This document shows positions 13,126 to 14,673 of a stretch of 64,000 nt of DNA, piece by piece; the stretch's first letter is position 1, and the number at the start of each line of letters is the position of its first letter. The position numbers and the translations under genes are program-made. The DNA comes from an uncultured Candidatus Sumerlaeota bacterium. GTDB taxonomy: Bacteria > CAYMEV01. The notes beneath the pieces are model-generated. The model was not told where the DNA came from. It searched no databases and saw nothing but the letters and a program-made list of their open reading frames with translations. Where the stretch lies: assembly GCA_964389675.1 (NCBI GenBank), contig CAYMEV010000012.1, positions 39,329-103,328 on the forward strand, in the 5' to 3' direction.

Positions 13126-13176
13126 AGATAGTTTGCTTTTATTATACTACAAAAAGATCTTATTTAAAATATAAAA

Positions 13177-13288
13177 GGGCAAAATTATTGGAGGCTAATA
13201 ATAAGGCAGACTAAAAATAATAATCCAATTAATATAAATAAAACAAAAAAAGGTTAAATTGGAATAATAGCCTCCAATAATTTTGCCC
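13177..13288. repeat. 21-bp perfect inverted repeat (GGGCAAAATTATTGGAGGCTA, arms 13177-13197 and 13268-13288) with 70-nt AT-rich spacer
   Basis: Arms checked base by base; the repeat stops exactly at 21 bp on both sides. Lies between the gdhA stop and the DHH start. Confidence 0.8.
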
Positions 13289-13293
13289 GGTTT

Positions 13294-14673
13294 CTATACT
13301 ACACCCATATCGATCATTGTGTCTGCGACCTTCTTGAATCCTGCTATATTTGCCCCGTTAACATAATTTCCAGGTGTATTGTATTCAATTGCTGCCTGCA
13401 TGCAGTTTGCATGGATATCTATCATGATCTGCCTGAGCTTTTCTTCTACCTCTTCCCTGGTCCAGCTTAGCCTTATGCTGTTTTGGGACATTTCAAGCCC
13501 GGATACGGAGACACCTCCTGCATTTGCTGCTTTGCCAGGGCCGAAAAGGACCTTGTTGGCGAGAAATACTTCAACAGCCGGAGGCATTGAAGGCATGTTT
13601 GCACCTTCAGCAACACAGATGCATCCATTTTTGACAAGGATTTTTGCATCATTTTCATCTATTTCATTTTGAGTTGCACACGGGAGTGCTACATCAAAGT
13701 TAGAAAAGCGCCAGGGCCTCTGCCCTGCATAATATTTGGCTTTCGGGAATGCCTCTGCATACTGGGATATCCTTCCCCTCTTAACATTTTTCAGTTCCAT
13801 GATATATTCCCATTTTTCCTGGTCAATTCCATCTTCATCATATATTGAACCGCTTGAATCACTCAGTGTCACAACTTTGCCTCCCAGCTGTGTCACCTTC
13901 TGGGTTGCATACTGAGCAACATTGCCTGATCCCGATACTGCAACCTTTAATCCGTTAAAATCCATATTGCGGGTTTTCAGCATTTCCAGGGCAAAAAAGA
14001 CTGCACCGTAACCTGTAGCTTCAGGCCTGATAAGGCTTCCGCCCCATCTCAGACCTTTTCCGGTAAGAACCCCTTCAAAAACATTCTTCAGTTTCTTGTA
14101 CTGTCCGAAAAGATAGCCTATCTCCCTGGCTCCTACGCCGATGTCTCCTGCAGGGACATCCGTATTTGCTCCTATATGCCTGAAAAGTTCATTCATAAAA
14201 CTCTGGCAGAACCTCATTACTTCATCATCGGATTTTCCTTTGGGATTGAAATCGCTTCCCCCCTTGCCACCGCCCATAGGCAGGCCTGTAAGGCTGTTCT
14301 TGAATATCTGTTCGAAGCCGAGGAATTTGAGGATTCCGAGATTTACAGAGGGATGGAAACGCAAACCGCCTTTATAGGGCCCTATTGAGCTGTTGAATTC
14401 GATCCTGTATCCCCTGTTTACATGAATTTCTCCTCTGTCATCCTGCCATGGTACCCTGAACGATATAACTCTTTCCGGTTCGACAATCCTCTCCAGTATC
14501 CTGGCATTCTGATATTTCGGCTCACGTTCCATAACAAGACGGAGAGATTCAAGGACCTCCACAACAGCCTGTATAAATTCAGTCTCCCATGGCTGTTTTG
14601 CCTCAACGTCATTGATTACCTGATCCACATATTGACTCATAAAATTCCTCCTGTAAGGGTAATATAGTATCAC
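13294..14673 (-). CDS. gdhA: Glutamate dehydrogenase
   Basis: 459 aa; Glu/Leu/Phe/Val dehydrogenase signature [16 protein letters not shown] and a C-terminal Rossmann domain. Confidence 0.9.

Follow-up and report, generated by a model that had tools for sequence, protein, structure and literature searches.

A covarying long-stem hairpin at the 3' end of gdhA, probably an intrinsic terminator, in an uncultured bacterial lineage

Results

An inverted repeat located between gdhA and a DHH phosphoesterase gene in the 64,000-nucleotide stretch of DNA analysed here (hereafter the window) most likely represents a clade-specific intrinsic terminator with an expanded interior. We assign a probability of roughly 0.7 to the reading that it terminates the gdhA mRNA intrinsically and forms its 3'-end hairpin. 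The window and its relatives directly display a structure, the strand that carries it, conservation with covariation, a linkage to gdhA and a U-tract behind the stem. A long-stem gdhA terminator had been among the options of the original prediction, and this option gained support from conservation on the sense strand after the stop codon, from the U-tract and from the linkage to gdhA.

The gdhA coding sequence (13294-14640, minus strand; stop codon TAG at 13296-13294) encodes, according to its translation, an NADP-type glutamate dehydrogenase of 448 amino acids with Pfam matches to ELFV_dehydrog_N (E = 3e-52) and ELFV_dehydrog (E = 2e-90); an independent contig, L001, encodes the identical protein. 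A consensus scan placed a promoter-like site upstream of it (TTGACT, 16 nt, TATAAT; 14688-14715, minus strand; 11 of 12 matches), which suggests that gdhA forms a transcription unit of its own. On the other side of the repeat lies the gene for a NrnA-like phosphoesterase of the DHH family (PF01368; 12031-13113, minus strand, ATG at 13113), whose 360-aa product is 100% identical to protein P0001 (360 aa), and next after it comes a PFK gene (10725-12044). The predicted promoter of this DHH-PFK pair spans 13141-13168 on the minus strand (10 of 12 matches in the scan), with a -35 hexamer TTTAAA at 13168-13163, 16 nt of spacing and a -10 hexamer TATAAT at 13146-13141. The Pfam matches, and the location of both genes on the minus strand, confirm the original placement of the repeat between gdhA and the DHH gene.

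The arms, GGGCAAAATTATTGGAGGCTA at 13177-13197 and its exact reverse complement at 13268-13288, form the perfect 21-bp inverted repeat with a 70-nt spacer that had been described at the outset. It can be extended to 24 nt at 96% (one mismatch; 13177-13200 and 13265-13288), which leaves 64 nt inside, and the unit including both arms measures about 112 bp. Such an arrangement had been claimed to exceed chance, and indeed none of 100 dinucleotide-preserving shuffles contained a match, even with three mismatches tolerated. The 21-mer occurs at only two sites in the 64-kb window, the arms themselves. No other inverted repeat of the whole window is as good, and the combination of stem and T-tail is by far the strongest present (23 pairs versus at most 16 at other sites).

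In RNA read from the minus strand, the sense strand of gdhA, the 5' arm GGGCAAAAUUAUUGGAGGCUAUUA (13265-13288, perfect over 13268-13288) begins 5 nt past the gdhA stop codon and pairs with the 3' arm UAUUAGCCUCCAAUAAUUUUGCCC (13177-13200, minus strand, perfect over 13177-13197). Folding of this strand, which had been proposed as a check, yields a long stable stem with an MFE of -44.4 kcal/mol (z = -3.66), and none of 200 shuffles was as stable. The base of the stem is GGGC/GCCC and its remainder is AU-rich. The 64-nt interior (13201-13264, minus strand) is likewise AU-rich, varies in length and sequence by lineage, and in the window includes a small inner hairpin (13218-13230 with 13257-13269, minus strand). 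Directly 3' of the stem follows the U-tract UUUUAUAUUUU (13166-13176, minus strand). It corresponds to the T-rich tract noticed earlier on the minus strand (TTTTATATTTT at 13176-13166), and the promoter-like -35 hexamer of DHH overlaps it. When the hairpin was compared with Rfam 15, no family reached its gathering threshold, the best being WsnRNA46 with 27 bits against the 65.3 needed; the remaining matches were plant miRNA hairpin models, far under threshold.

The position of the hairpin is that of a terminator: the stem lies 5 nt past the gdhA TAG, with one promoter-like site 5' of gdhA and another 3' of the hairpin. Its geometry differs from the canonical one, since a stem of 21-24 bp encloses 64-70 nt, as against about 5-14 bp and a loop of 3-8 nt, and a canonical terminator scan returned no site in 12800-13600. 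With the arms about 110 nt apart, closure of the stem may be too slow to terminate transcription efficiently. A ribosome terminating at the stop codon, only 5 nt ahead of the stem, would cover the 5' base of the latter. The window exceeds its shuffles only about 1.4-fold in canonical terminator-like sites, so the organism may rely little on intrinsic termination.

Looking up homologues of DHH and GdhA as exact proteins gave the informative relatives. They fall into three lineages, all uncultured, at 87% (L002-L005), 84% (L007-L009) and 81% (L175 and L176) GdhA identity. Comparison of orthologous gdhA 3' regions, also proposed earlier, revealed the hairpin in all four lineages with complete sequence, window included; in the three others it starts 5-8 nt past the gdhA stop codon. 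The 5' arm is homologous in L002, L007, L175 and L179, and in the last of these, a fifth lineage, the hairpin starts after gdhA too, with the contig ending inside it. Every lineage has an A-rich stretch 5' of the stem, and U-rich tails follow it in L002 (UUUUCUAUUUU), L007 (UUUUUCUUUUC) and L175 (UAUUAUUUUU). As a side observation, the contigs of both L179 and L006 end within the inverted repeat.

Gene context links the hairpin to gdhA. The order gdhA-DHH-PFK is shared by the window, L002 and L007. In L175, gdhA is followed by a radical-SAM gene and not by DHH, and the hairpin is still there; in L010 and L012, where DHH has no gdhA upstream, the hairpin is absent. The hairpin thus travels with gdhA, whichever gene comes next.

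The stem is maintained by compensatory change. On alignment A1, 94.7% of the cells at 15 basal pairs are paired, compared with 41-59% after shifting the partner by 1-3 columns, with support coming from four independent lineages only. Compensatory double changes are found at three stem pairs (A-U/U-A/G-C, A-U/G-C and G-C/C-G). RNAalifold independently recovered the same stem, of 16 pairs, and no conserved interior structure. Read on the gene strand, the stem in A1 contains 11 G-U cells and no A-C cell, and pairing is therefore under selection on the gene strand alone. Sense folds were also more stable than antisense folds in each of the three lineages tested (-43.3 versus -40.5, -53.1 versus -45.3 and -27.4 versus -20.5 kcal/mol).

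These data bear on the earlier idea of a palindromic regulator site. In a fuller form of such a reading, the repeat would act as DNA, either as a bipartite operator of a dimeric regulator or as a cruciform, on the DHH promoter or on gdhA, and the symmetry of the DNA is indeed perfect in the window genome, just upstream of the DHH promoter. Antisense, however, the 11 G-U cells become A-C mismatches and pairing drops to about 80%, against 94.7% in the sense direction. Arm sequences diverge across lineages and pairing persists nonetheless, a pattern to be expected of RNA and not of a protein-binding site; the relatives' arms pair only as gene-strand RNA, contrary to that idea. The half-sites lie 91 bp apart from centre to centre, which is unusual for an operator, and no hairpin stands 5' of DHH in L010 and L012. 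We consider a DNA-level site extremely improbable.

At greater distance, the hairpin was found in none of the best 80 gdhA loci per collection (one of genomes, one of metagenomes), where GdhA is 61-75% identical and many phyla are represented; the best matches in such large collections are distant because GdhA is too conserved. An MFE screen of 157 loci for long post-gdhA hairpins was uninformative, since 200-nt segments nearly always yield long-range pairs, and a stricter stem finder was used instead. A covariance model derived from the hairpin, R1, gave weak matches in seven distant gdhA loci (L106, L082, L030, L021, L134, L122 and L113). All seven are canonical short terminators, consisting of A-tract, stem and U-tract, just 3' of gdhA, as exemplified by GGGCAGAACC...GGTTCTGCCCTTTTAT in L030.

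A search for further copies, advised by the original prediction with a mobile element in mind, found none. The unit is single-copy in the 64-kb window by exact and 3-mismatch search, blastn and R1 (filters off). The exact 21-mer has no copy in 185,579 GTDB representative genomes or in viral contigs, and blastn of the 127-141-nt unit found no second copy in the window, in related loci totalling about 1 Mb, or in plasmids and phages. The only further R1 match in the window, a marginal one at 59661-59768 (E = 0.11), was rejected; it lies within a 741-aa ORF and shows no folding signal (z = 0.14).

The remnant of a MITE, inserted between gdhA and DHH with duplication of the 9-bp target TATACTACA, would account for perfect 21-bp terminal-like repeats around a unit of about 112 bp. 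It would also account for the 9-mer on both sides, the right copy overlapping the gdhA stop codon (TAG at 13296-13294, minus strand), as had been pointed out. The window contains the 9-mer just twice, at 13143-13151 and 13295-13303, against 0.26 copies expected. By chance, a direct repeat of at least 9 nt across such flanks is uncommon, arising in about 0.8% of shuffles and at 1.8% of window positions, figures for a repeat that was spotted after the fact.

Both copies nevertheless belong to other features. The left one, TGTAGTATA on the gene strand (13143-13151), lies in and just upstream of the DHH -10 hexamer; this -10 region, TTTTTGTAGTATAAT, recurs unchanged in L002 and in similar form (TTTTGTnnTATnnT) in L007, L006 and L010, and the left 9-mer is conserved in L002, where the second copy is missing. 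The right one (13295-13303) consists of the last gdhA codons and part of the stop codon (GGT GTA GTA TAG, G-V-V-stop), coding sequence particular to the window genome, as the relatives' GdhA has G-L-T-stop or G-L-I-stop at its end, encoded by different DNA. The right copy is therefore no product of target-site duplication. Moreover, the 9-mers are 25 nt (left) and 6 nt (right) off the repeat ends, which bears out the earlier remark that they do not adjoin them, and a duplicated target site should abut the element. In L002 and L007 the hairpin occurs without the flanking repeat. There is no presence/absence polymorphism, the hairpin being at the orthologous site in all four lineages with complete sequence and evolving by compensatory changes of RNA type, and a second copy was found in none of the collections searched. 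We therefore give almost no credence to a MITE remnant, and the 9-bp repeat plays no role: judging from the sequences, the DHH -10 region and the last gdhA codons match by chance.

An attenuator for gdhA, another of the original options, is ruled out because the element lies 3' of the gene. The hairpin might instead be a regulated attenuator of gdhA read-through into DHH-PFK, controlled by the ribosome at the stop codon or by alternative pairing of the 5' arm. Because the stem begins 5-8 nt past the stop codon in every lineage, the 5' arm would be hidden under a terminating ribosome; by inspection, this arm can also pair with an interior CAAUAAU copy in L007 and L175; and gdhA-DHH-PFK synteny holds in three lineages. 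However, these alternative pairings are short, they lack conservation, and the basal stem is all that RNAalifold gives. DHH has a conserved promoter-like site of its own, even where gdhA is missing, and L175 keeps the hairpin before an unrelated gene whose own promoter-like site is strong (TTGACT, 17 nt, TATATT). Read-through control is thus quite unlikely.

Inside the hairpin, the window, L002 and L007 share a 20-nt, apparently unpaired block, in RNA AUUAUUAUUUUUAGUCUGCC (13205-13224, minus strand), with the consensus AUUAUU(R)U(W)UUUAGU(Y)U(R)C(Y). Fourteen of its 20 positions are invariant, the rest of the interior being unalignable, and the block is missing from L175, which retains the stem. 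Such a block is unnecessary for a plain terminator. It raises the question of a structured regulatory RNA of the gdhA 3' UTR, in which the block would be, after processing, a seed that pairs with other mRNAs, or else a protein or RNase site governing the fate of the gdhA mRNA, and stem and U-tract would act as terminator of that RNA. A small structured RNA had also been listed at the outset. Conservation in three lineages and the predicted unpaired state agree with a regulatory RNA, GlnZ-type 3'-UTR sRNAs likewise typically conserve only seed and terminator, and with 21-24 perfect pairs the stem is long enough for an RNase III substrate.

We nevertheless regard a regulatory RNA as doubtful. 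L175 has the stem without the block, and the block lies inside the hairpin, whereas known 3'-UTR sRNAs carry theirs 5' of it. The promoter scan found no promoter-like site near the gdhA end, the complement of the block is not enriched in the window (2 matches, 1.18 expected), Rfam holds no matching family, and the block might just as well serve the DHH promoter, as an upstream element at the DNA level. The more specific proposal, that a clade-specific gdhA 3'-UTR RNA uses the block as a working site to couple glutamate dehydrogenase expression to other genes, as a counterpart of GlnZ, is unlikely.

Three further candidates were rejected. The block has an open frame reading I(I/V)FSL(P/L) in three lineages, and in the window 32 codons are open in frame past the gdhA TAG; a small peptide or read-through of the gdhA stop was dismissed, since neither a start codon nor a ribosome-binding site recurs consistently and L002 has a different frame relative to gdhA. 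GGAGG and CCUCC in the arms are not kept in L002, L007 or L175, which speaks against a Shine-Dalgarno/anti-Shine-Dalgarno device. An antisense promoter in the block has, by inspection, no conserved -35/-10 pair.

Discussion

From the structure and its evolution we infer termination, and any effect on mRNA stability, as follows. Transcription would proceed from the gdhA promoter leftward along the minus strand. Past the TAG, after 5 nt, the RNA would fold into 21-24 perfect pairs with a GGGC/GCCC base around an AU-rich interior of about 64 nt, and this hairpin together with UUUUAUAUUUU directly after the stem would release RNA polymerase. The long stem remaining at the 3' end may then protect the gdhA message or otherwise set its lifetime. 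DHH-PFK would be transcribed from its own promoter, whose predicted -35 hexamer overlaps the U-tract.

In an uncultured lineage, the hairpin would accordingly mark where the gdhA transcription unit has its 3' end and where the DHH-PFK unit starts. The mobile-element lead is removed as false, and the significance beyond annotation is small. The element clearly exemplifies how compensatory evolution can maintain a terminator-like hairpin whose interior is greatly expanded, and standard terminator finders overlook hairpins with interiors of this kind. Perfect inverted repeats such as this one can also break metagenome assemblies (L179 and L006). Should the interior block prove regulatory, it would give access to the post-transcriptional control of nitrogen assimilation in a lineage without cultured members; should the block couple glutamate dehydrogenase expression to other genes, the hairpin would be a GlnZ counterpart in an uncultured phylum-level lineage.

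Among known systems, MITEs and REP/BIME palindromes resemble the gdhA unit as intergenic units of about 110 bp with inverted-repeat ends. They are often located at gene 3' ends, where they can terminate or stabilise. Unlike them, the gdhA unit is single-copy in the sequence searched, has no abutting target-site duplication, is orthologous in four lineages and evolves by compensatory changes.

Another class comprises 3'-end stabilising hairpins, reportedly represented by the 'positive retroregulator' of Bacillus thuringiensis cry genes described by Wong & Chang in 1986 (PNAS 83:3233, cited in PMC13001229). Here too a long inverted repeat would double as terminator, 3' of an often highly expressed metabolic gene, and by analogy it is expected to block 3'-to-5' exonucleases. 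The gdhA hairpin has no sequence relationship to them. A perfect stem this long could instead, again by analogy, be an RNase III target that destabilises the gdhA message; in lambda sib retroregulation, an RNase III target stem destabilises the message. Stabilisation of mRNA mediated by terminators is described in PMC11696848.

In GlnZ, which derives from the glnA 3' UTR, seed and terminator are conserved and the rest varies, and in E. coli a long stem-loop lies between the two (bioRxiv 10.1101/2022.04.01.486790). The gdhA element is similarly part of a 3' UTR, that of a gene central to nitrogen assimilation, and similarly conserves a short block and a terminator arm, the remainder varying in length. 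It differs from GlnZ and other 3'-UTR sRNAs in that the terminator hairpin encloses the block instead of following it, and in that L175 lacks the block.

The gdhA hairpin departs from intrinsic terminators in its stem of 15-24 pairs, in an interior of 50-80 nt in place of a 3-8-nt loop, which sets the arms about 110 nt apart, in the conserved unpaired block that this interior holds, and in having been missed by the canonical scan. It shares with them the location just past a stop codon, the transcribed strand, the A-rich lead-in, the G+C-rich base and the U-tract, and distant gdhA loci have ordinary terminators, weakly matched by R1, at the same place.

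The inverted repeat and its gene neighbourhood

The inverted repeat lies between gdhA (13294-14640, minus strand; ELFV_dehydrog, E = 2e-90) and a DHH-family phosphoesterase gene (12031-13113, minus strand; PF01368), after which comes a phosphofructokinase (PFK) gene. GGGCAAAATTATTGGAGGCTA occupies 13177-13197 on the plus strand and its exact reverse complement 13268-13288; with one mismatch, the repeat reaches 24 nt (13177-13200 / 13265-13288), 64 nt separating the arms. It is the top-ranking inverted repeat of the 64-kb window. The 21-mer was found neither elsewhere in the window, with three mismatches allowed, nor in 100 dinucleotide-preserving shuffles. 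Since the repeat, the 9-mer flanking it and both neighbouring genes check out in coordinates, strands and Pfam assignments, the observation behind the original prediction is confirmed in every detail.

Downstream of the gdhA TAG stop (13296-13294), the minus strand has five nucleotides (AAACC), then the 5' arm GGGCAAAAUUAUUGGAGGCUA, an AU-rich interior of 64-70 nt in which a small hairpin is nested, the 3' arm, whose terminal GCCC reaches 13177, and, immediately 3' of the stem, the tract UUUUAUAUUUU (13176-13166). A sigma-70-like promoter, TTTAAA-16-TATAAT (13168-13141, minus strand, 10/12 consensus matches), overlaps this U-tract with its -35, and GAGGTG precedes the ATG start of DHH at 13113. 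Upstream of gdhA there is a strong promoter-like site, TTGACT-16-TATAAT (14715-14688).

Divergent from gdhA, and syntenic in all relatives, is a gene for a 1004-aa protein (14814-17828, plus strand) that has a PPDK_N domain (PEP-utilising, ATP-binding) and matches the response-regulator receiver weakly. The 231-aa ORF that overlaps it (14681-15376, minus strand), for which Pfam gave no match, is probably spurious. The gdhA frame stays open for 32 codons past TAG (13197-13296, minus strand: KPGKIIGGYYSNLTFFCFIYINWIIIFSLPYY-stop); this read-through frame is not conserved, differing in the relative L002 and carrying extra stops in the relative L007, and is probably meaningless.

Relatives

The window comes from an uncultured lineage; across the region, it is matched without differences by an independent Logan contig (L001). 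Neither the 185,579 representative genomes searched nor viral contigs contain the 21-mer, and the hairpin unit matches no plasmids or phages. Beyond a small clade, the closest DHH homologues are ~55% identical (Acidobacteriota MAGs) and the closest GdhA homologues ~75-77% (WOR-3 and Spirochaetota MAGs). Exact-protein look-ups led to contigs of four more lineages in the clade. The order gdhA-DHH-PFK is found in L002-L005 (DHH 80%, GdhA 87% identity to the window) and L007-L009 (72% and 84%), while L175/L176 (GdhA 81%) have a radical-SAM gene after gdhA. The fourth lineage, L179 and L006 (GdhA 85%, DHH 76%), comes from one sequencing run (SRR34563357), both contigs ending in the intergenic region. 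L179 (1496-1531) stops 36 nt past the gdhA stop, within the 5' arm, and L006 (1-73) begins in the U-tract/promoter; the inverted repeat seems to be where the assembly broke.

Conservation of the hairpin as RNA

Comparison of orthologous regions, which the original prediction had suggested, revealed that the hairpin is kept after gdhA: in each of L002, L007 and L175 a long hairpin starts 5-8 nt past the stop codon and is followed by a U-rich tail, and in L179 the start of the 5' arm is present before the contig ends. In the alignment of these regions (A1), pairing across the 15 basal pairs is 94.7% and drops to 41-59% when the 3' partner is shifted by 1-3 columns. At three pairs both sides have changed with pairing kept, namely columns 20-121 (A-U, G-U, U-A, G-C), 25-116 (A-U, G-C, G-U) and 29-112 (G-C, C-G), the covariation statistics being modest with four independent lineages and consistent in direction. 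RNAalifold, supplied with no structure, returned the same stem (16 pairs, four with compensatory changes) and no conserved structure in the interior. The minus-strand RNA, whose folding had likewise been proposed, forms the long stem (185 nt, -44.4 kcal/mol, z = -3.66; none of 200 shuffles as stable). No Rfam family matches the hairpin region.

The stem cells of A1 include 11 G-U and no A-C, so the arms are complementary on the gene strand only; on the antisense strand ~80% of cells would pair. In each of the three lineages tested, the sense strand gives the more stable fold. Hence a DNA palindrome is not the selected feature, and the palindromic regulator site of the original prediction is ruled out. 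The alignment also shows that the window's perfectly symmetric DNA is just the all-Watson-Crick version of the stem in its lineage.

Linkage to gdhA

In L175, where gdhA is followed by a radical-SAM gene that has a promoter-like site of its own, hairpin and U-tail are retained. L010 (DHH 70%) and L012 (DHH 58%), contigs with other genes upstream of DHH-PFK, contain no such hairpin; L010 retains the DHH -10 region TTTTGTGTTATGAT. The hairpin thus goes with gdhA, not with DHH. A covariance model built from A1 scored highly at orthologous sites only. Its weak matches in distant gdhA loci (L106, L082, L030, L021, L134, L122, L113) are all located just past gdhA and are canonical A-tract/stem/short-loop/U-tract terminators, which places the window element at the gdhA terminator position.

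Long inverted repeats (19-28 bp, outer ends 40-70 nt apart) also occur soon after gdhA in unrelated lineages (L036 ~4350-4420, L108 ~2860-2935, L049 ~4345-4405; a Planctomycetales MAG, a metagenome contig and Flavobacterium pokkalii), and long hairpins may be a recurrent feature of gdhA 3' ends. Another long inverted repeat follows the G+C-rich gdhA of L177 (4390-4530; GCA_037917155.1, JBAIWU010000526.1), where the gene is called as a fusion of 653 aa; the arms of this repeat are tandem CAGTAGA-like heptamers, unrelated in sequence to the window's hairpin.

The 9-bp direct repeat

The only copies of TATACTACA in the window, at 13143-13151 and 13295-13303, are separated from the repeat ends by 25 and 6 nt. 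A direct repeat of at least 9 nt across this flank geometry arises in ~0.8% of shuffles and at 1.8% of window positions. On the gene strand, the left copy is TGTAGTATA, within TTTTTGTAGTATAAT, the DHH promoter -10 region, identical in L002; the right copy is GGT GTA GTA TAG, the final gdhA codons (G-V-V-stop). In relatives, gdhA closes with G-L-T-stop or G-L-I-stop, encoded by different DNA, and a second copy of the 9-mer is lacking. A mobile-element remnant with a duplicated target site had been considered; as hairpin-bearing lineages lack the duplication, the 9-mer cannot be a target-site duplication dating from the hairpin's origin. The direct repeat is a coincidence specific to the window's genome.

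The DHH-PFK -10 motif TTTTGTnnTATnnT is shared by five lineages, including one without gdhA upstream (window 13141-13155; L002 ~2960-2975; L007 ~2950-2965; L006 ~22-36; L010 ~1292-1306), and may be a lineage-specific extended -10 element.

A conserved block in the interior

Within the interior, a 20-nt block has 14/20 positions invariant in the window (13205-13224, minus strand; RNA AUUAUUAUUUUUAGUCUGCC), L002 (2889-2908) and L007 (2881-2900), with AUUAUURUWUUUAGUYURCY as the consensus of all three, the rest of the interior being unalignable. It is absent in L175 and has no predicted pairing. The block could work at the RNA level, as a seed or as the target of a protein or RNase; sRNAs from 3' UTRs, GlnZ for example, conserve just seed and terminator (bioRxiv 10.1101/2022.04.01.486790). 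Against a seed, its complement shows no enrichment in the window. Just as well, the block could act at the DNA level, as an upstream element serving the DHH promoter, which has a poor -35. A peptide reading was rejected, the start codon being inconsistent among relatives. That the gdhA 3' hairpin acts as a regulatory RNA seems to us improbable.

Discussion

The evidence best supports reading the hairpin as the 3' end of the gdhA mRNA and its intrinsic terminator. Structure, strand, covariation, U-tract, gdhA linkage and positional equivalence with canonical terminators elsewhere are established, and they back the long-stem terminator among the options of the original prediction. In a scan of the window for stems with T-rich tails, the hairpin has 23 pairs, versus at most 16 for all others. 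Polymerase would terminate at the U-tract, the long stem may affect gdhA mRNA lifetime, and the putative DHH-PFK promoter lies directly downstream, its -35 overlapping the U-tract.

Several points speak against a terminator, however. The geometry is not canonical, with arms ~110 nt apart; a standard terminator scan misses the site; and the stem base is within reach of a ribosome at the stop codon. Canonical terminator-like sites are only ~1.4-fold enriched over shuffles (24 vs 16.3, 21 vs 17.7 and 27 vs 17.6 in window 1-60000), many of them inside genes, and the organism may rely little on compact intrinsic terminators.

By analogy, the stem of such a terminator could stabilise the mRNA, as in the 'positive retroregulator' known from B. 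thuringiensis (Wong & Chang 1986, cited in PMC13001229) and in terminator-mediated mRNA stabilisation (PMC11696848). The stem might instead be a target of RNase III.

The hairpin is neither a mobile element nor a DNA operator, and it belongs to no known RNA family. Most likely it is a gdhA terminator peculiar to the clade, long-stemmed and with an expanded interior, beside the DHH promoter: a finding real but ordinary in kind. Compared with an ordinary gdhA terminator, it has the same base and tail but a lengthened stem and an expanded interior.
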